Positions 2,884-33,686 of a stretch of 35,977 bases of DNA are shown piece after piece (within the stretch, counting starts at the first letter, position 1; every line of letters starts with the position of its first letter). Under the pieces are notes generated by a model that was not told the DNA's origin, did not search any database, and saw nothing but the letters and a program-made list of their open reading frames with translations. A program made the position numbers and the translations under genes. The stretch covers positions 1 through 35,977 of the forward strand of contig CAYFYW010000212.1 of the NCBI GenBank assembly GCA_964347425.1. Reading direction: 5' to 3'. The DNA is from an uncultured Nitrospirales bacterium (GTDB taxonomy: Bacteria; Nitrospirota; Thermodesulfovibrionia; UBA6902; BMS3Bbin08).

Positions 2884-4947
2884 ATGTGTCCTGGGAGGCT
2901 TCATGCGTACTGCTTACTGCTGACCGCTTACTGCCTGCTCCTTACCCCATCACATGCATCTGATGAACCCTTCATATATCCCTCAAACTATGGCGGCACA
3001 GGCCTCATGGAAATTCCAACAGCAAGAGTGATGAGGGAAAACAGCTACCGCATTGGTGCCAGCCAGATAGATCCTTACAGATACTTCTATGGTGCGGTAA
3101 GTCCAGTTAAAGGGCTGGAGGTAAATGGAAGAATAACTGAAGTTCTAAGGGTCCCTGCATTAACACAGGACTATGGCAATTTTAAAGACAAAACAATAGA
3201 CCTGAAATACCAGCTCATCCCCGAGGGTAAATATATGCCTGCTTTTGCAGTTGGATTCATGGACCCCCACGGTACAAGGGTTTATCCGTCCCAATACGTT
3301 GTAGTGAGTAAACAGATATACCCTTTTGACTTTACACTTGGGTTCGGCAACGGCAGGTTTGGCAAAGAACCGCTTCCTTCAGCAGGCGAAGGAATGAAAT
3401 TTGAGATGCTGAGCGACCCAATGGGATGGCTGGAAGATTCGAAGTTTTTCTGGGGTATTCAGTTTGCGCCTTCTGAAAAATATGCATTGATGTTGGAATA
3501 CAGCCCGATAAAATATCACGCACAGACAAGAGACCCTGCACAGGAGAAATACTTCAACGATCCTGTTCCTTCAAAATATAATTTTGGCTTCCGATACAAA
3601 CCTACAAGGTGGTCAGAAATTGATGTAAGCTATCAAAGGGGCGAACAGATAGGTGTTGACGTATCATTGACATTTGATATCGGCAAAACCCTGATACCGA
3701 TATACGACCGCCCCTACAGGGAAACCCTTGAGGACAGATTGAATCCACTGTCTGAAAGAATCACAAAGGCATTATACTTTTCGGGTTTTAGTGATATCGG
3801 CATTCTCATGCAGGGGGATGAGTTATGGATAGAGGCACAGAATGAAAAATATTTTTATAATACAAAAGCACTGGGAAGGATTCTCACTGCAGTTATTCAA
3901 GCTGTTCCCGAACATATCCGGAAAATTCATATTATCCTCAAGGAAAACGGAGTCCCGATAATTGATTTTTCAGCTCTGAAAGCGGATATCAATAACTATT
4001 ATTCCGGTGAACTCACGCTGAACGAATTCCTCTATGTATCAGAGATAAACACCGATGTATTGAAGACATTGGATATACCGGGAAGACATAAAAAATCCTT
4101 CAGATACAGATTTAGACCATCTTTAGAGACATTCCTGAATGATCCGTCAGGTTTTTTCAAATATAGATTAGGCGTCTCGGGATCGATGAGCTACCACCCC
4201 TGGAAAGGTGCATCTTTTGTCACCGGGCTTTCAACATACCCCATAAACAATATTTCTTCTGTTAATGAGCCTTTTTCCATCCCGGTCAGGTCAGACCTTG
4301 TTCTGTATACACAGGAGAGGTTTGCACTTGACAGATTGCTCTTTGACCAGATAAAAAAACTGACCCCGCACATATATGGTAAGGTCTCCGCAGGATTCCT
4401 GGAGGTTCAGTATGCAGGTATTGACGCAGAGGTTGCAATGCCTGTTCTTGATGGCAGAATACTTCTGGGTTTAAGCGGAAGTGCGGTAAAAAAAAGGGAT
4501 ATTAAACAGCCTTTTAACCTGAAGCGCAATGATGTCAAAGATATCTATACAACCGCATTCATAAATACACGTCTTAACCTCCCTGATCAGGAAATTTCAA
4601 TAGATATCAAAGCCGGCAGATTTCTGGCAGGCGACAACGGCGTGAGGTTTTCAGTGTCAAAATCTATAAACGGCATAATCCTCATGGCATGGTATACTGT
4701 TACGGATACGTCTGCTTTTACAGATGATTTCAACGATGGTTACCGGGACAAAGGAATTGGCATATCAATCCCGATAAGGTTATTTCAGGGTTCTGACTCA
4801 AGAACTGCTTACAGGTATGAAATCTCCCCATGGACGAGAGACACCGGACAGGACATAGACCACTTTGGCACGCTGTTTGATTTTATGGACAGAAACGTAA
4901 AGATTTTTCTTGACAAAGACAAAAAAATGATGTTTAATTCTAACTGA
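2884..4947 (+). CDS. YjbH/GfcD-family outer-membrane exopolysaccharide protein
   Basis: Matches remembered E. coli YjbH landmarks: YGGTGLMEIPTARVM (cf. FGGVGLLQTPTARM), NFKDKTIDLKYQL (cf. YKDKAFDLKLRL) and YVVVSKQIYPFDFTLGFGNG (cf. YLVASK..PFDFTLGLGWG). The N-terminal signal peptide ends SHA/S. Confidence 0.88.
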   Translation: MCPGRLHAYCLLLTAYCLLLTPSHASDEPFIYPSNYGGTGLMEIPTARVMRENSYRIGASQIDPYRYFYGAVSPVKGLEVNGRITEVLRVPALTQDYGNFKDKTIDLKYQLIPEGKYMPAFAVGFMDPHGTRVYPSQYVVVSKQIYPFDFTLGFGNGRFGKEPLPSAGEGMKFEMLSDPMGWLEDSKFFWGIQFAPSEKYALMLEYSPIKYHAQTRDPAQEKYFNDPVPSKYNFGFRYKPTRWSEIDVSYQRGEQIGVDVSLTFDIGKTLIPIYDRPYRETLEDRLNPLSERITKALYFSGFSDIGILMQGDELWIEAQNEKYFYNTKALGRILTAVIQAVPEHIRKIHIILKENGVPIIDFSALKADINNYYSGELTLNEFLYVSEINTDVLKTLDIPGRHKKSFRYRFRPSLETFLNDPSGFFKYRLGVSGSMSYHPWKGASFVTGLSTYPINNISSVNEPFSIPVRSDLVLYTQERFALDRLLFDQIKKLTPHIYGKVSAGFLEVQYAGIDAEVAMPVLDGRILLGLSGSAVKKRDIKQPFNLKRNDVKDIYTTAFINTRLNLPDQEISIDIKAGRFLAGDNGVRFSVSKSINGIILMAWYTVTDTSAFTDDFNDGYRDKGIGISIPIRLFQGSDSRTAYRYEISPWTRDTGQDIDHFGTLFDFMDRNVKIFLDKDKKMMFNSN

Positions 4948-5072: not shown

Positions 5073-5531
5073 ATGAGGAAAGTCATAGCCTTACTGGTAG
5101 TTTTCGCATTCGTGATGTTTAATTTTGGATTTGTATCACAGACGTCTGCGCTGGACAGGGTCACTGAAAAAATACCGTCAGTTGAAAATGCAAAGGAGAT
5201 TGCAGCAAATGCCGGCGGAGTATATCTGAAAGGTACAGACGCCCCGGCTCTTTCAGAAACTGAAGTGGCCTTACCGATAATGGAAAAAACAGGTGATGTT
5301 ATCGGGTATATAGCTGCTGATCAGTCAAAACTTGCGGCAGCACTCGATGAAGCAGGGTATACGGAGGCAGGCTCGGCAATAGCAGCCCTTAAAAGCGGCT
5401 CAACCGCAGGTCACACAGTTGAAACCGGCACTTCTATTGGAACCGTGGCACTTGCAGTAATATTTGTTGTTGCAGCTACCGGAACAGCGTTTGCCGTATC
5501 AGAATCAACCGAGAGTACAGGGGGACACTAA
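5073..5531 (+). CDS. hypothetical secreted/membrane-anchored Ala/Gly/Thr-rich protein (composition reminiscent of YjbE/GfcA)
   Basis: RBS aaagggggaaag 1 nt upstream of the ATG. N-terminal signal/anchor. C-terminal STAGHTVETGTSIGTVALAVIFVVAATGTAFAVSESTESTGG segment. A strong terminator follows. Confidence 0.55.
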   Translation: MRKVIALLVVFAFVMFNFGFVSQTSALDRVTEKIPSVENAKEIAANAGGVYLKGTDAPALSETEVALPIMEKTGDVIGYIAADQSKLAAALDEAGYTEAGSAIAALKSGSTAGHTVETGTSIGTVALAVIFVVAATGTAFAVSESTESTGGH

Positions 5532-5621: not shown

Positions 5622-5779
5622 ATTATCCCCGTACGACCCGATTCCGGGATTCGCTTCGAGCTACAGGGAATAATAAATAAAAAAGATTGATCATCTCCAG
5701 AAAAGTTGGCCTGTCCCTTTTCGGGATTCAAGCCTGCCTGCTTGCCTCGATTTGCGAAGCGGGCCGGCGGGCAGGGGGT
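5622..5779. repeat. degenerate copy of the GGGAAT/ATTCCC plus CCTGCCTGC hairpin repeat family
   Basis: Contains attatcccc...gattccgggattcgc...cagggaataat, then ggattcaagcctgcctgc...ggcgggcaggggg. This resembles the copy at 32508-32601 (ggattccccgacctgcctgccggcaggcaggtcgggg). Confidence 0.35.
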
Positions 5780-5801
5780 CAAGGAGATTAAAGACAGAGA
5801 T

Positions 5802-6314
5802 ATGAAACACGGAAAATCAACAGTATCACTAATTTTTATTCTTTCCCTCATTCTTGGTGTCATCCCGAATCCTCGCTTCACACATGCCGAACACGGAGAA
5901 GAATCCATCGATTTAATTCTTGATTCAGCTGAGAAATTCTTTATCTCATTAAGAGTGAAGGACTACAGAGCCGCATGGGACTTATTGTCTGAGGAATCGC
6001 ATGAGAAAATAATTGATGATGTCTATAAAGACTCTAAAAAAATGGGATTGGGGATTGAAAAAAAAACGATTATAAAAGATTTTAAGAGTAACGGAGCAAT
6101 GTTTTCAAACTACTGGATTGCCTTTCATAATAACTTTGATCCTGACATGATCCTGGAACAGAGCAGATGGGAAATGGGTTTTATTAAAAAAAATCAAGCT
6201 GAAATAATCATCACATACAAAAAATCAGAAAATCCGGCAATATTAAAGATGTTTAAAGAAGGGGGTATGTGGAGAGTGGGTCTTGTTGAAACATTCTGGA
6301 CAAGAAAATATTGA
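5802..6314 (+). CDS. hypothetical secreted protein (about 170 aa)
   Basis: The track ORF starts at 5706, but its first 32 codons translate the GC-rich repeat. Met at 5802 gives a normal signal peptide, MKHGKSTVSLIFILSLILGV. No family recognised with confidence. Confidence 0.55.
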   Translation: MKHGKSTVSLIFILSLILGVIPNPRFTHAEHGEESIDLILDSAEKFFISLRVKDYRAAWDLLSEESHEKIIDDVYKDSKKMGLGIEKKTIIKDFKSNGAMFSNYWIAFHNNFDPDMILEQSRWEMGFIKKNQAEIIITYKKSENPAILKMFKEGGMWRVGLVETFWTRKY

Positions 6315-27451: not shown

Positions 27452-28138
27452 ATGAAAATAGCGGTTATAATTCCCGCACTGAATGAAGAAGAAACCATTT
27501 CCAGGGTGCTGGGAGACATACCTCGTGATTTGGTTGATGAAGTGGTAGTTGTGGACAATGGGAGTACCGACAGGACCCCTTCGATAGCAGAGGGATGGGG
27601 AGCAACCGTCCTGAATGAAGCGAAAAAGGGTTACGGGTACCCCTGCCTGCGAGCAATCGAATACCTTAAGGGAGAGAGTCCGGATGTAGTGGTTTTTTTA
27701 GACGGAAATTATAGTGACTACCCTACAGAGGTAATCAGGCTGCTTGAGCCCATAGTCAGGGACGGTTATGATCTGGTTCTTGGTTCCAGGTTCATGGGTG
27801 AATGTGAAAAGGGTGCTCTAAGGCCCCCTGTTCGTTTCGGTAATCTATTGGCAACTACATTGATCAGATTTCTTTATCTGGCTAAATACTCGGACCTCGG
27901 CCCCTTCAGGGCCATTAAATTTACAAAACTACTGGAATTGGGTATGCGGGATAACCTGGGATGGACAATCGAAATGCAGATTAAGGCAGTTCAAAAAAAA
28001 TACCGGATTGCCGAGGTACCGGTCAGTTATCGAAAAGGAACCGGGAAGTCAAAAATAACGGGAAATATAAAGGGTATAATAGTGGTTGGTTATAGACTTC
28101 TCTGGAACGTATTCAAATACAGGTTCTTCCGGAATTGA
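27452..28138 (+). CDS. family 2 glycosyltransferase
   Basis: IAVIIPALNEEETI...VVVVDNGSTDRT...FLDGNYSDYP (DxD-like). Start placed at Met 27452 (MKIAVIIPA). Confidence 0.8.
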   Translation: MKIAVIIPALNEEETISRVLGDIPRDLVDEVVVVDNGSTDRTPSIAEGWGATVLNEAKKGYGYPCLRAIEYLKGESPDVVVFLDGNYSDYPTEVIRLLEPIVRDGYDLVLGSRFMGECEKGALRPPVRFGNLLATTLIRFLYLAKYSDLGPFRAIKFTKLLELGMRDNLGWTIEMQIKAVQKKYRIAEVPVSYRKGTGKSKITGNIKGIIVVGYRLLWNVFKYRFFRN

Positions 28139-29127
28139 AACCTCACGGTAGAACGACCAAATCTTCAAATACCGTAATTATTATTCTCGGACCGACCGGT
28201 GTTGGTAAAACTGGTCTGTCTGTCCTTCTCGCAGAAACCTTAAATACAGAAATCATAAGCGCAGATTCTATGCAGATTTACCGTCATATGGACATAGGAA
28301 CTGGCAAACCTTCACAAAGGCAACTGGAAAAAGTAAAACATCACCTGATTAACATATTATCTCCCAGAGAATCTTTCAGTGCCGGCATGTTTAAAAAGAT
28401 GGCGACAAAAATCATAGATGAGCTGCACAGAAAATGTAAAATCCCAATAATTGTGGGGGGAACAGGTCTTTATATAAAGACTCTCACGAGGGGCCTGTTT
28501 GAAGGACCCGGCGCTGACTGGTCATTGAGAGAAAAATTGAGAGAGGAAGAGAGATATTTCGGTAAAGGATATCTCTATCGACATCTCAAGCAGGTTGACC
28601 CTTTATCTGCAGGCAAAATCAATCCAAATGATACAAGAAGAATAATCAGGGCACTCGAAGTTTCACTGAAAGGCGGTAAGACAATCTCGGAGCTTCAGCA
28701 TGTATCAACCGTGTCTCTACCGTATAATTTTGTCAAGATAGGACTTTTAAGGGAAAGAAAACAGCTATACAAACTCATAGAAGAGAGGGTTGATGACATG
28801 ATGGAGAGAGGTCTTTTACAGGAGACAGAGACGCTCCTAAGAAAGAGTCCCCATAGAACCCCCTTACAGTCACTCGGGTATAAGGAAATGCAACTTTATC
28901 TCAAAGGCGCTCTCGGTTTCGAACATGCCGTAAGGCTTTTAAAAAAACGTACAAAAATGTATGCTAAAAGACAGTTTACGTGGTTTAAGAGAGAATCCGG
29001 CATTAGCTGGATAGACATAACAGACATTATGGATGCAGACAAGATTTATGAGAAGGTCATAAATGATGTTGATATTCTGAGAGAAATACTTTATGTTAAA
29101 AAATCTTATAAAAAACAAGATGTCTAA
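28135..29127 (+). CDS. miaA: tRNA dimethylallyltransferase
   Basis: P-loop ILGPTGVGKTGLS, SADSMQIYRHMDIGTGKP, IVGGTGLY, YAKRQ.TWF. TTG start overlaps the GT2 stop by 4 nt. Confidence 0.94.
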   Translation: MKPHGRTTKSSNTVIIILGPTGVGKTGLSVLLAETLNTEIISADSMQIYRHMDIGTGKPSQRQLEKVKHHLINILSPRESFSAGMFKKMATKIIDELHRKCKIPIIVGGTGLYIKTLTRGLFEGPGADWSLREKLREEERYFGKGYLYRHLKQVDPLSAGKINPNDTRRIIRALEVSLKGGKTISELQHVSTVSLPYNFVKIGLLRERKQLYKLIEERVDDMMERGLLQETETLLRKSPHRTPLQSLGYKEMQLYLKGALGFEHAVRLLKKRTKMYAKRQFTWFKRESGISWIDITDIMDADKIYEKVINDVDILREILYVKKSYKKQDV

Positions 29128-29133
29128 TCAGTA

Positions 29134-29211
29134 CTGTCCAAAATAATATAAAAAGAAGGCGGGCTTGCCCGCCAAATCTGTAAAGGCGGGATGCATTTCT
29201 GTTTTGGACAG
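29134..29211. repeat. MITE-like repeat, short copy E (78 bp) between miaA and hfq
   Basis: ctgtccaaaataa ... ctgttttggacag termini. Inner GC hairpin ggcgggc tt gcccgcc. Flanked by the 12-bp direct repeat gatgtctaatca (29119-29130 and 29216-29227). Confidence 0.8.
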
Positions 29212-29261
29212 ATGTGATGTCTAATCAAGGATAATAAATATATATTATAACGGGAGATTCT

Positions 29262-29501
29262 ATGGGCAATAAGAGCCATGACTTGCAGGACCTCTACCTC
29301 AATTCCTTAAGAAAGGAAAAGATTCCGGTTGTGGTATATCTAACAAACGGAGCACGCCTGAGGGGGGTAATAAAGGGTTTCGATAATTTTGTGATTTTAT
29401 TTAAACAGGAAAAGCAGCAGCTTGTGTACAAACATGCCATTTCCACGATAATTCCAGAGAGAGATGTTGCCTTAAATCGTGAAAATGCCAGGGGAGAATG
29501 A
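29262..29501 (+). CDS. hfq: RNA chaperone Hfq
   Basis: Sm1/Sm2 motifs: [40 protein letters not shown]...[11 protein letters not shown]. Confidence 0.96.
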
Positions 29502-29908
29502 ACTGGATGCAGTCCCGGCCAGGAAGCCCTCTTTGCACTGTTGATGCAATCATAGAGACTGGAAATGGAATTATTCTCATCAAAAGAAAAAACCCACCTT
29601 CCGGATGGGCTATTCCGGGGGGATTTGTCGATTATGGAGAATCACTTGAGGATGCTGTTTGCAGAGAGGCAAAAGAAGAAACAGGGCTTGATATAGAACT
29701 TTTAAAACAGTTCCATACATATTCAGACCCTGAAAGAGACCCCAGGCATCACACCATTTCCACTATATACATTGCCACTGCGTCAGGCGAACCAAAAGCG
29801 GGTGATGACGCTAAAGAAGTGGGGATTTTCAATAAAGACTCTCTCCCGAAAGATATAGCCTTTGACCACAGGCAGATTCTTGAAGATTATTTTAGTGGAA
29901 AGTATTAA
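29498..29908 (+). CDS. NUDIX hydrolase
   Basis: Nudix box [28 protein letters not shown] overlap with the hfq stop. Confidence 0.88.
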
Positions 29909-30011
29909 TCCAAAATCATACCTGTCCAGACCCCGCGAAACCCTAAAGTAATAAGTCGTTCAGGCCGAATAGTTATATAGTTGGATTAAAAAATTCTGAA
30001 AAAGGGTCAGT

Positions 30012-30284
30012 ATGGTAAAAAAACGACCTTTAAAGGTTCGCGACAGGATAGAAGAATACCTGGCACAAGTTCCCCGATTCGGTATGATCGCTGTGGATAT
30101 GGGTTTTGTGACTGCACAGCAACTGAAAGAAGTCTTGACCGAGCAGATTGAAGACGACCTTTCCAACAGGCCCCACAGACTTGTTGGAGAAATGTTTTTC
30201 GACAGAGGCTGGATGACCCATGACCAGATTGAGACGGTTTTGAACAGACTCTCCAACGAAAAAAGGGGTAAGGGCGTTTCATAA
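30012..30284 (+). CDS. small stand-alone MshEN/T2SSE_N-like protein
   Basis: Residues 22-45, RFGMIAVDMGFVTAQQLKEVLTEQ, fit the RLGxxLLxxGLLxxxxLxxxLxxQ pattern. A second, looser copy is LVGEMFFDRGWMTHDQIETVLNRL. Confidence 0.5.
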   Translation: MVKKRPLKVRDRIEEYLAQVPRFGMIAVDMGFVTAQQLKEVLTEQIEDDLSNRPHRLVGEMFFDRGWMTHDQIETVLNRLSNEKRGKGVS

Positions 30285-30696: not shown

Positions 30697-30812
30697 TATA
30701 AAAATTTAGCATAATACTTTATCAATCGCAAATACAATAAAACATTCGTTTTACATAAATTTACTGTGCTATACTCTAAAATAGTATTTGCCTGAAGGGG
30801 GTGAGAAAATCC

Positions 30813-31265
30813 ATGTCCAGGAAGAAAAAAACTGAAAAAGTAAAACCTGGAAATAAAGCCGGGGAGAAAAATAAAAGCACAAAAAATATCATTATCGTTG
30901 TTGCGGCGGTATTGGCCGCTGCGCTGGTGGTAATTGCCTTTCAGTTGAGAACATCAACCGATAAAACCCCCGGTTCCGTGTCTGCTGTTGATGATAGTTC
31001 TTTGCGGAAGGGTGAGACGAGGGAGACCCTTCCGCCTGCAATGTTTGCAGATCCATTTATTGCAGGGATGTATCAGGTTGCAAAGGACATACCTCACGTT
31101 CTGGACAGTGTCAGGTGTTATTGCTATTGCGAAAGGGACCCGTTCAAACACGTTAGTCTTCTCAGTTGTTTTGTGGACAAGCATGCAGCCGCCTGAGGCA
31201 TCTGTCTGAATGAAGCCCGGCGGGCTTCAGAATTGTATAAAGAGGGCAAGAGCATAAAAGAAATA
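30813..31265 (+). CDS. PCYCGC-type membrane-anchored protein read through an in-frame TGA (candidate selenocysteine at 31194-31196)
   Basis: RBS gggggtga before ATG 30813, an N-terminal TM anchor and a CYCYC...H.SLLSCF..KHAAA motif. The same frame continues past TGA as GICLNEARRASELYKEGKSIKE to TAA 31263-31265. Confidence 0.5.
31211..31229 (+). promoter_or_regulatory. SECIS-like stem-loop 14 nt downstream of the in-frame TGA
   Basis: tgaagccc ggc gggcttca: perfect 8-bp stem (or 6-7 bp with a G-rich 5-7 nt loop). Confidence 0.35.
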
Positions 31266-31399
31266 AGCGATATTATAGACAAAGAATTTGGCAGATAGAT
31301 TCAGGTGTTACCATTATTTAATAAAAGACTTGACCTGAAATTTTCATATGGAGTCTATTCCCATCACGCTCTTACAGAGGTATTGATGGTTTTAAACCC

Positions 31400-32422
31400 A
31401 TGTTGGTAAATCTTTTAGTAAAGCCGGGCGTGCTTGAATTAAGAGAGGTTAAGACCCCGAGGCCGTCACCCGGCGAAGTTCTCGTAAAGATAAAGGCTGC
31501 TCTTACCTGCGGGACAGACTTGAAGGCGTTCAGGAGAGGGCATCCTGTGATACCAATGCCAACGGTCTTTGGCCACGAGTTTTCAGGCGTTGTGGAGGAT
31601 GTCGGCAGAGGTGTAAAAAAATTCTCAAGGGGTATGGATATAATGGCTGTCCACAGCGCTCCGTGCGAAAAATGTTATTTCTGTAAAAAACAACTGTACA
31701 ATCTCTGTGAGGGCCTAATGAAAACAAAAGTTCTCGGCGCCTTTGCAGAATATATTTTATTGCCAAAACATATTGTTAAACATAATGCCTTTATAAAGCC
31801 GGAAAGACTCTCCTTTCAGGAAGCAGCTTTTTTAGAACCTCTTTCCTGTGTGATACACAGCGTCAACTCCGTCAGCATGTCCAGAGGAGATACTGCTCTG
31901 ATATTTGGAGCCGGCGCTATTGGATTGCTGCATTTAATGGCTTTAAAAACAATGGGTATTAAAGCGATTGTCGTTGACAAACAAGAAACACGTCTTGGAA
32001 AGGCAGTCGAGGCAAAATCGGATATTGTGGTAAATGCTGACAGAGAAGACGTTCATGGAAAGATTATGGACTTTACGGGAAAAAGGGGTGTTGATGTTGT
32101 ATTTGAATGCACCGGGGCACATGAGGTATGGGAAAACTCTGTCTGGCTTGTCCGTAAAGGTGGAACGGTTATACTGTTCGGGGGATGTAGGCAGGGAACA
32201 CGGGTTGCTTATGATGCAGGGAGGATTCACTATGATGAGATAACCCTTAAAGGCGTTTTTCACTACAAACCTTCTGATGTGGCAAAGGCATATAATCTTC
32301 TTTCTCAAGGAAAAATGACAGTGGACAGACTGATTTCAGGAGAATATCCCCTCCAGGGGCTGAAAAAAGCATTTGACAGGCTGATGGCCGGTGAGGGAAT
32401 AAAATATGCGATTATTCCTTAA
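31400..32422 (+). CDS. Zn-dependent medium-chain alcohol/polyol dehydrogenase
   Basis: GHEFSGVVEDVG catalytic-Zn motif, structural-Zn Cys cluster CEKCYFCKKQLYNLC and Rossmann IFGAGAIG. Confidence 0.86.
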   Translation: MLVNLLVKPGVLELREVKTPRPSPGEVLVKIKAALTCGTDLKAFRRGHPVIPMPTVFGHEFSGVVEDVGRGVKKFSRGMDIMAVHSAPCEKCYFCKKQLYNLCEGLMKTKVLGAFAEYILLPKHIVKHNAFIKPERLSFQEAAFLEPLSCVIHSVNSVSMSRGDTALIFGAGAIGLLHLMALKTMGIKAIVVDKQETRLGKAVEAKSDIVVNADREDVHGKIMDFTGKRGVDVVFECTGAHEVWENSVWLVRKGGTVILFGGCRQGTRVAYDAGRIHYDEITLKGVFHYKPSDVAKAYNLLSQGKMTVDRLISGEYPLQGLKKAFDRLMAGEGIKYAIIP

Positions 32423-32507
32423 AGCGCGGATTGACACAGATTAAAAAAGCAGATTGGCACAGATAAAGACAATTATTGACTCACGCATAAATAATGTCCG
32501 CTTTTTC

Positions 32508-32601
32508 GTCATTCCCGAAATTCTTGATCGGGAATCCATGTTTTAAGTTTTTACCTCTGGATTCCCCGACCTGCCTGCCGGCAGGCAGGTCGGGGAATGA
32601 C
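32508..32601. repeat. GTCATTCCCG...GGGGAATGAC hairpin repeat, second copy
   Basis: gtcattcccga..tcgggaatcc plus the perfect 16-bp palindrome arms ccccgacctgcctgcc/ggcaggcaggtcgggg. Confidence 0.8.
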
Positions 32602-32663
32602 AGCACTATCAGTATATAGGGCATTATTATTACGACTATCAATAGTGATTATATACGTATCAG

Positions 32664-33686
32664 ATGAAAGTCGCTAAACTCTACAGTTTCAACGATATCC
32701 GTATTGAGGACGTGCCGGTTCCCGAGATTGGCCCGGATGATGCACTGGTCAGGGTCAAGGCATGCGGCATCTGTTCAGGTGATGTCATGCCATGGTATAT
32801 AGAGACAAAAGCCCCGCTTGTCCTTGGCCATGAGCCGGCGGGGGAGATGGTCAAGGTAGGCCGCATGGTTAAAAACTTCAAATATGGTGACAGGGTATTT
32901 TTTCATCACCATGCCCCCTGCTTCATTTGCAAATACTGTAAAAAGGGCGACTATGTTCAATGCCACACATGGAAGGATTCAAAGATAATCCCGGGTGGTA
33001 TATCAGAATATGCACTCATTCCCCGGGTAAACTTGCAGGGCGACACGCTCCTGCTCCGGGGAAAAGTTTCTTTTGAAGAGGCTACGCTTATTGAGCCGGT
33101 TGCCTGCGTTGTAAAAGGATTGAAGAGGGCTAAAGTCAGACAGGGAGACACGGTCCTTGTAATGGGACTCGGTGTTATGGGACAGATACATATCATACTT
33201 GCGAAAAGATATGGTGCTGAAAAAATAATAGGAGCAGATAGGATACCTTATCGGCTTCAACATGCAAAGGAATTCGGAGCCCACGCTGTTATTGATGTAT
33301 CAAGCGTCGAATTTGCGGATGCAATAGTCAACGAGACCGGCGGAGAGATGGCAGACGTTGTGGTAGTCGGTCCCGGGGATGTTGAAGCAATGTCTCAGGG
33401 TATTGGTTGTGCCGGCAGAGGGGGCAGGGTGCTTTTTTTTACACCGGCAGGACCGGAAGACGTGCTTCGTATCAAGCCAAATGAAATATACTTCAGGGAT
33501 ATAAACATTATAACCAGTTACTCCTGCGGACCTGACGATACTAAAGAGGCACTTGCCCTTATATCAGATGGTGTAATTAATACGGAGCGTCTTATTACAC
33601 ACAAATTCCCCATCGAAAAAACCTCAGAGGCCTTCAGGCTTACTGCCGCGGCAAAAGACTCTCTTAAGGTAGTGGTTACAATATGA
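32664..33686 (+). CDS. Zn-dependent medium-chain alcohol/threonine dehydrogenase-like protein
   Basis: CGICSGD, GHEPAGEMVKVG, Cys cluster CFICKYCKKGDYVQC and Rossmann VMGLGVMG. Confidence 0.86.
   Translation: MKVAKLYSFNDIRIEDVPVPEIGPDDALVRVKACGICSGDVMPWYIETKAPLVLGHEPAGEMVKVGRMVKNFKYGDRVFFHHHAPCFICKYCKKGDYVQCHTWKDSKIIPGGISEYALIPRVNLQGDTLLLRGKVSFEEATLIEPVACVVKGLKRAKVRQGDTVLVMGLGVMGQIHIILAKRYGAEKIIGADRIPYRLQHAKEFGAHAVIDVSSVEFADAIVNETGGEMADVVVVGPGDVEAMSQGIGCAGRGGRVLFFTPAGPEDVLRIKPNEIYFRDINIITSYSCGPDDTKEALALISDGVINTERLITHKFPIEKTSEAFRLTAAAKDSLKVVVTI

Follow-up and report, generated by a model that had tools for sequence, protein, structure and literature searches.

The question raised by this locus is whether the TGA at 31194-31196, which closes an open reading frame within a stretch of 35,977 nucleotides (the whole of the DNA analysed here, termed the window), ends a protein or encodes selenocysteine (Sec). 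Based on the comparison of 51 related loci, we consider it very probably a real selenocysteine codon. The called frame, ending in ...CYCYCERDPFKHVSLLSCFVDKHAAA (...CFVDKHAAA*), closes at this TGA after 127 residues, and the codons that follow directly are GGC ATC TGT, giving X-G-I-C. Both points had been made in a first-pass annotation of the DNA and hold on direct reading. The same annotation had let the frame run for 22 further codons to a TAA at 31263-31265. This part does not stand, since 31263-31265 reads ATA (Ile), the TAA lies out of frame, and the frame continues for 33 codons (GICLNEARRASELYKEGKSIKEISDIIDKEFGR) to a TAG at 31296-31298. Read through, the feature covers 30813-31298 on the plus strand and specifies 161 residues, with the TGA as residue 128 (Table 1). 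Translation likely starts at the ATG at 30813 rather than at the GTG at 30801, because orthologues also begin with MSRKKK or MSKKKK. A scan for promoters and terminators around the gene gave nothing exceeding chance. The lysine-rich N-terminus, followed by a single hydrophobic anchor of about 18 residues, places the 95-residue Cys/His-rich domain of the protein probably outside the cytoplasm. In the AF2 model of P0052, a homologue with Cys in place of Sec (a Cys form) and 59% identity to the window protein, residues 22-44 form a helix that is equivalent to I26-F43; some orthologues carry a lipobox in place of the hydrophobic anchor. Six Cys/Sec and two His residues are invariant across the alignments. 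Among the Cys-form homologues C131 is invariant and the position of residue 128 is Cys in at least 90%.

Table 1. Positions of the features discussed in the text. Coordinates are those of the window unless a locus is given.
Feature	Position	Strand	Basis or remark
Shine-Dalgarno-like purine run AGGGGGTGA	30796..30804	+	8-11 nt upstream of the ATG; direct reading
Complete CDS, predicted 161-residue CYCXC-family selenoprotein, Sec at 128, ending at TAG	30813..31298	+	translation; NF041379 and PF13798 scores
Hydrophobic stretch I26-F43 after Lys-rich N-terminus, predicted signal anchor	30888..30941	+	sequence; inferred topology
C-Y-C-Y-C motif (C102, C104, C106), family signature	31116..31130	+	columns invariant in alignments
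In-frame TGA, putative U128	31194..31196	+	TGA in 47/47 loci and in L050-L053; Cys aligned in homologues
U-G-I-C redox motif (UxxC), predicted helix start	31194..31205	+	homologue columns and AF2 model of P0052
33 codons needing UGA recoding for translation; putative CcmH-like helices (…ELYKEGKSIKEISDIIDKEFGR)	31197..31295	+	coding periodicity; hhalign against CcmH
Bacterial SECIS-type hairpin, 8-bp stem, loop GGC	31211..31229	+	fold, covariation, codon-aware null, criteria of PMC13188914
In-frame TGA of neighbouring TlpA-like redoxin genes	L007:~6843, L009:~11506, L017:~11837, L039:~9589, L041:~2620	minus in L041	at most ~1.5 kb from the CYCXC gene

The gene at 30813-31298 is not new; it is an orthologue of the known CYCXC / OS_HP4 family. 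With U scored as C, the read-through product matches NCBIfam NF041379 (NF041379.1, OS_HP4_CYCXC; curated cut-off 90 bits) at 112.6 bits (E 6.8e-33, model positions 1-89 of 90) and Pfam PF13798 (PCYCGC; gathering threshold 25 bits) at 49.4 bits (E 6e-13). The 127-residue ORF that ends at the TGA reaches 68.4 and 20.8 bits, respectively, and fails both models; therefore, the window holds a complete family member only if the TGA is decoded. Both motifs that define the CYCXC family are found, as C102-Y-C-Y-C106 and U128-G-I-C131. The assignment to PF13798 in the first-pass annotation is thus borne out. Its authors' view that the family was not among the described selenoproteins has to be corrected, since NCBI names the Cys-form relatives 'CYCXC family (seleno)protein' (NF041379), and a 'Hypothetical protein OS_HP4' with a UxxC motif is listed in a 2022 review (PMC9312934) and, with one Sec, in a 2026 review of the prokaryotic selenoproteome (PMC13188914). 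The latter classes OS_HP4 as 'predicted with high confidence' and not as 'experimentally verified' (PMC13188914). The OS_HP4 listing cites Zhang and Gladyshev 2007; in its main text, the 2007 Olavius paper names OS_HP1-3 only.

Support for recoding comes from related genomes. When one genome per species was scanned, 46 loci were recovered; they come from Nitrospirota/Thermodesulfovibrio and Desulfobacterota-type metagenome-assembled genomes (MAGs) and together with the window form an aligned set of 47; four loci fetched later (L050-L053) bring the total to 51. In each of the 46 relatives the tblastn match extends beyond the TGA. The Sec codon is TGA in 47/47 aligned loci, never TAA or TAG, and TGA again in the four later ones (51/51). 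The real stops of the orthologous genes are mostly TAA or TAG. Behind the TGA we find xxC in all loci except L008 and L030, in which a second TGA replaces the Cys, and a conserved tail with the consensus CQxEALRAAQLxKEGKSIxEIKxAIDREFG. Apart from the second TGA in these two loci, the 31 codons downstream of the TGA are free of stops in all 51. Their entropy by codon position is 0.75/0.49/1.23, compared to 0.71/0.53/1.49 upstream of the TGA; beyond the real stop, all three values lie near 1.9. A profile search recovered 2,141 homologues of the PF13798 type, and these proteins continue past the position of the TGA with a near-invariant Cys, the first of a CxxC, aligned to it. In a sample of 23 best-scoring homologues, 22 have this Cys (e.g. 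in C-D-I-C) and the remaining one has a 'W'. The checks that had been proposed at the outset, namely the residue aligned to the TGA in homologues, the codon at this position in orthologous loci and the conservation of the downstream codons, all came out in favour of recoding.

The second line of evidence is the hairpin. As described in the first-pass annotation, 31211-31218 and 31222-31229 form a perfect stem of 8 bp around the loop GGC, starting 14 nt past the TGA. Bacterial SECIS elements (bSECIS) have been defined by their dimensions (apical loop of 3-9 nt, upper stem of 4-16 bp), a G at loop position 1 or 2, a distance of 16-37 nt from UGA to loop and an MFE of -7.5 kcal/mol or lower (PMC13188914). 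With a 3-nt loop, G in loop positions 1-2, the loop 22 nt after the UGA and -12.4 kcal/mol, the window hairpin agrees with this definition on all four counts. Taken by itself it is ordinary for the local composition (z = -0.96). A hairpin folds at the site in 51/51 loci (mean -10.7 kcal/mol); the distance from UGA to loop is 21-22 nt, except for L008 and L030 with 26 nt. In the 47-sequence alignment, 85.2% of the stem cells are paired, compared to 32-61% when the partners are slid; compensatory double changes are present in 4/8 stem pairs, and the observed covariation score was reached by 0/500 shuffles. Because the stem overlaps conserved codons (E-A-L/R-R-A), synonymous codons were redrawn from the usage of each locus (2,000 draws). 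The observed 6.82 of 8 pairs stand against 5.21 +/- 0.15 (maximum 5.75) in these draws, where the phylogenetic relatedness of the loci overstates independence, as in all of these hairpin statistics, and leaves the direction clear. Codon choice within the stem is narrow. GCC makes up 42/44 of the first Ala codons (background 35%), and the Arg is always encoded by AGG or CGG (36/36; background 47%). Eight Cys-form genes have on average 4.75 in-register pairs and -6.9 kcal/mol. Thus, the position and shape of a SECIS that had been noted for this hairpin agree with the published definition and are conserved with covariation. Rfam searches of the whole window at gathering threshold, and of 31150-31320 at E up to 10, returned nothing relevant and no bacterial SECIS family. 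One Cys-form gene deserves a separate remark: P0044, with TGT at the codon, has the Sec forms L009 and L025 as very near relatives and retains a weakened copy of the hairpin (L047:742-786; GCC to GCT, -5.1 kcal/mol). Judged from these sequences, it looks like a recent Sec-to-Cys switch.

Genes for Sec decoding were sought in the same DNA. ARAGORN reported no tRNA-Sec in the window, which contains no tRNA gene at all, or in the 46 loci, and selA, selB and selD were not found within the 36-kb window or the fetched loci. A scan with the SelD pattern G-x-G-C/U-G-C-K over ~710 kb of loci gave no match. A scan of the window for further TGA-split ORFs gave no second selenoprotein candidate. Arrangements of selB/selC in Nitrospirae are mentioned in the 2026 review (PMC13188914). 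A second gene with an in-frame TGA is present in five of the related loci (L007, L009, L017, L039 and L041), where a TlpA-like redoxin encoded next to the CYCXC gene reads FW(A/T)TW-U-PWC. Its TGA stands where the CxxC would begin, and a strong hairpin (AGGAAGG-loop-CCUUCC) comes after it. These neighbours, like the selB/selC arrangements, lend indirect support to Sec use in the lineage. Elsewhere, the same TlpA-like neighbour reads WCPPC. The two loci with a second TGA in the CYCXC gene itself, L008:10307-10318 (CP070737.1, Nitrospiraceae bin398) and L030:7581-7592, read TGA AAC CTC TGA, corresponding to U-N-L-U (UxxU). Their hairpin is shifted, so that its loop (GGUC) lies 26 nt past the first UGA and 17 nt past the second, and an A-U to G-C compensatory change distinguishes L008 from L030. 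The sequence downstream is conserved between the two, and past the real stop their identity is 29%. The reviews give OS_HP4 solely as UxxC with one Sec (PMC9312934, PMC13188914). When the L008 protein was used to search metagenomes for further UxxU members, only two additional loci came up, both UxxC.

Several other meanings of the TGA have to be considered. If it were a genuine stop, the gene would encode a protein of 127 residues and the 33 codons downstream would be untranslated and open by chance. This would be in line with the public gene calls, as each of the 43 close homologues taken from the protein collection (P0001-P0043) ends exactly at the Sec codon, and with TGA being the commonest stop in the window. 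However, sequence past a real stop is unconstrained, while the 31 downstream codons have coding periodicity and, in 51 loci, contain no stop other than the second TGA in two of them; moreover, the 127-residue product reaches neither family cut-off and is without the invariant CxxC. We therefore regard a genuine stop as extremely improbable. Among the 43 calls, P0006 carries the source's label 'flagellar basal body-associated protein FliL', apparently on account of the N-terminal anchor. It is also conceivable that the UGA is read through or reassigned as Trp, Cys or Gly instead of Sec. Two Logan-derived records, P0045 and P0055, indeed have Trp at the Sec position, and Sec machinery was not found in the window. 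These 'W' calls are, however, TGA under another code table and not TGG, as the DNA of P0055 (L053:566-976) illustrates, and Sec forms are in this way hidden among apparent full-length proteins. Half of the long ORFs in the window (12/24), that of recA among them, close with TGA, which therefore is not reassigned in this genome. The codon furthermore occupies the place of the redox Cys and precedes a conserved, covarying hairpin at SECIS spacing, and related loci carry a second UxxC gene with a hairpin of its own. Hence, a standard amino acid at this position appears very unlikely. A pseudogene or an assembly error, in which a Cys codon (TGY) was hit by a point error, needs a single substitution from TGT or TGC to TGA, but the same TGA recurs in 51 assemblies that are independent of each other and stem from different studies and phyla. 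The comparative data refute this idea and we give it next to no weight.

The best overall explanation, which we hold with high though not full confidence, is a 161-residue CYCXC selenoprotein whose UGA would be recoded via the hairpin; the CcmH-like role that we attach to it is less certain. That Sec replaces the first Cys of a CxxC, as proposed in the first-pass annotation, is supported by the aligned Cys, the TGA in 51 loci and the covarying hairpin. We envisage that the UGA at 31194-31196 is decoded as selenocysteine with the help of the hairpin at 31211-31229, which lies inside the coding sequence and would serve as bacterial SECIS, recruiting SelB with Sec-tRNA(Sec). The ribosome would then continue for 33 codons to the UAG at 31296-31298, and Sec would start the U-G-I-C at the beginning of a helix, where homologues have CxxC. 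The UxxC module would probably act in a CcmH-like manner, as a membrane-anchored periplasmic thiol (selenol)-disulfide exchanger. In this scheme a TlpA/ResA-type thioredoxin, together with CcdA, would maintain the CYCXC protein in its reduced form, and the CYCXC protein would itself reduce apocytochrome c or a similar substrate.

A part of this functional proposal is drawn from gene neighbourhoods. A TlpA-like redoxin is encoded within ~1.5 kb of the CYCXC gene in 12/47 Sec-form loci, in three different arrangements, and in L001 and L003, the two closest relatives with such a neighbour, CcdA follows the redoxin. Among Cys forms, CYCXC stands at the head of CYCXC-TPR-ResB-CcsA-redoxin-CcdA operons (L054:4001-8426, L062:4001-8420, L064:4001-8405), and the TPR protein of L064 has a weak match to PF23914 TPR_CcmH_CycH. 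The cluster at L060:4001-6968 reads CYCXC-TPR-redoxin-redoxin-CcdA. The presence of relatives beside genes for TlpA/ResA, CcdA and ResB/CcsA suggests that the family reduces thiols in the periplasm during the maturation of cytochrome c. The window gene itself is flanked by a hotdog thioesterase and Zn-dependent dehydrogenases; redox or cytochrome genes are absent from its neighbourhood. The surrounding genes are of the housekeeping kind. Upstream (28135-30284) are miaA, hfq, a NUDIX hydrolase and a 90-residue protein with an MshE-type c-di-GMP-binding motif, and downstream (31400-33686) lie two tandem Zn-dependent dehydrogenase paralogues, the first of which is also the downstream neighbour in L002 (BMS3Bbin08). 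At a distance from the gene, the window contains three consecutive plus-strand ORFs of 687, 152 and 202 residues (2884-4947, 5073-5531 and 5706-6314), adjoining a polysaccharide-export gene, for which NCBIfam gave no match at E up to 1e-5.

The likeness to CcmH was followed in structure and sequence. Over the domain, AF2 models P0052 with confidence and as helices only, and the CxxC at 121-124 caps the helix 122-136. The top Foldseek match of this model in the PDB is 2kw0, the N-terminal domain of E. coli CcmH, and it is a weak one (E 1.1, probability 0.75, TM 0.56 on the target). The redox domain of CcmH is a three-helix bundle whose CxxC precedes helix 2. An hhalign comparison with the two solved CcmH sequences gave a probability of 78.7%, over 36 columns only and against a two-sequence profile, while reversed and column-shuffled controls stayed at or below 6.5%. 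In this alignment the CxxC falls on the CPKC of CcmH, and EGKSIKEISDIIDKEFG on EGKSKKEIVDYMVARYG. The window protein has no match to Pfam CcmH (PF03918) at E up to 1, and a profile search of PDB sequences gave no match. From its membrane anchor, CcmH reduces the CXXCH motif of apocytochromes, and the thioredoxin CcmG returns CcmH to the reduced state; the E. coli protein carries a fused TPR domain (PMC3884852). System II has been described with only CcdA, ResA, CcsA and CcsB (PMC3884852), without a CcmH equivalent. We tentatively propose, with a confidence that falls somewhat short of even, that CYCXC/OS_HP4 is a CcmH-like thiol/selenol reductant which together with a CcmI/CycH-like TPR partner would constitute an unrecognised accessory pair of System II (ResB/CcsA/ResA/CcdA), that CYCXC and the TlpA-like partner both alternate between Cys and Sec in some lineages, and that the two Nitrospirota MAGs represent a UxxU subfamily.

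A different function is conceivable for the same selenoprotein. The CYCxC…H…C…H…UxxC cluster could bind Cu, Zn, Fe or Hg, and the protein might then be a periplasmic metal chaperone or sensor. The invariance of the six Cys/Sec and two His residues would fit such a role, and so would the other neighbours of Cys-form genes, which include YHS-domain proteins, FeoAB with a cation-efflux gene and an OmpR-type two-component system. A Bacillales member adjoins an Fe3+-binding protein (PMC13068155). Against metal binding speak the TlpA/CcdA/ResBC neighbours, which recur in several different arrangements, and the resemblance of the UxxC module to CcmH in sequence profile and, weakly, in fold. On this evidence we rate a metal-binding role as unlikely on balance. 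It is nevertheless a serious rival to the CcmH-like function; the window gene is without redox neighbours, and other Cys forms lie by genes for YHS-domain proteins, FeoB or two-component systems.

The finding of a selenocysteine codon in the window changes little in itself, since it amounts to the correct call of a selenoprotein family that is already part of the NCBI annotation pipeline and of two reviews. Its practical value lies in annotation: 43/43 close homologues end at the TGA and two further relatives have the TGA as Trp. The OS_HP4 family has so far been listed without a function, and the CcmH-like module and the place at the head of operons give it a testable role in cytochrome c maturation. 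The parts worth following are the possible link between the CcmH-like module and System II and the UxxU variants.

Compared with known systems, the window protein shares with NF041379, OS_HP4 and PF13798 the full-length domain, the CYCxC motif and one Sec in first position of UxxC. The lineages of NF041379/OS_HP4 also agree, being Desulfobacterota and Nitrospirota MAGs, and we see no substantial difference to the window protein; the public calls stop at the TGA and are mostly unnamed. TlpA/Prx-like Sec thiol:disulfide oxidoreductases (UxxC) are extracytoplasmic, as is probable for the window protein, have Sec for the first Cys of CxxC and carry a SECIS just downstream. However, they adopt a thioredoxin fold, whereas the AF2 model of P0052 shows a CYCXC domain made of helices only. 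Filing the window protein as CcmH was considered and rejected, given the missing Pfam CcmH match, the missing LRC motif and a CYCxC…H…C…H half without counterpart. Similarities to CcmH (PDB 2KW0, 2HL7; PF03918) are nevertheless found at several levels. In CcmH, and by prediction in CYCXC, one membrane anchor carries a small helical domain in the periplasm, in both proteins the CxxC is followed by helices with …EL.xEGKS.xEI.D….(F/Y)G, and the neighbours of CcmH and of CYCXC relatives include genes for a TlpA/CcmG-type thioredoxin and a TPR protein (CcmI/CycH-like). The differences are equally clear. From CxxC to the EGKS helix, CcmH is longer by 13 residues, and it has an LRC motif (LRCxxC), where the window protein reads A-U-G-I-C, while the extra CYCxC…H…C…H half of CYCXC is absent from CcmH. 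The genomic context of CcmH is Ccm (System I); that of CYCXC is System II (ResB/CcsA).
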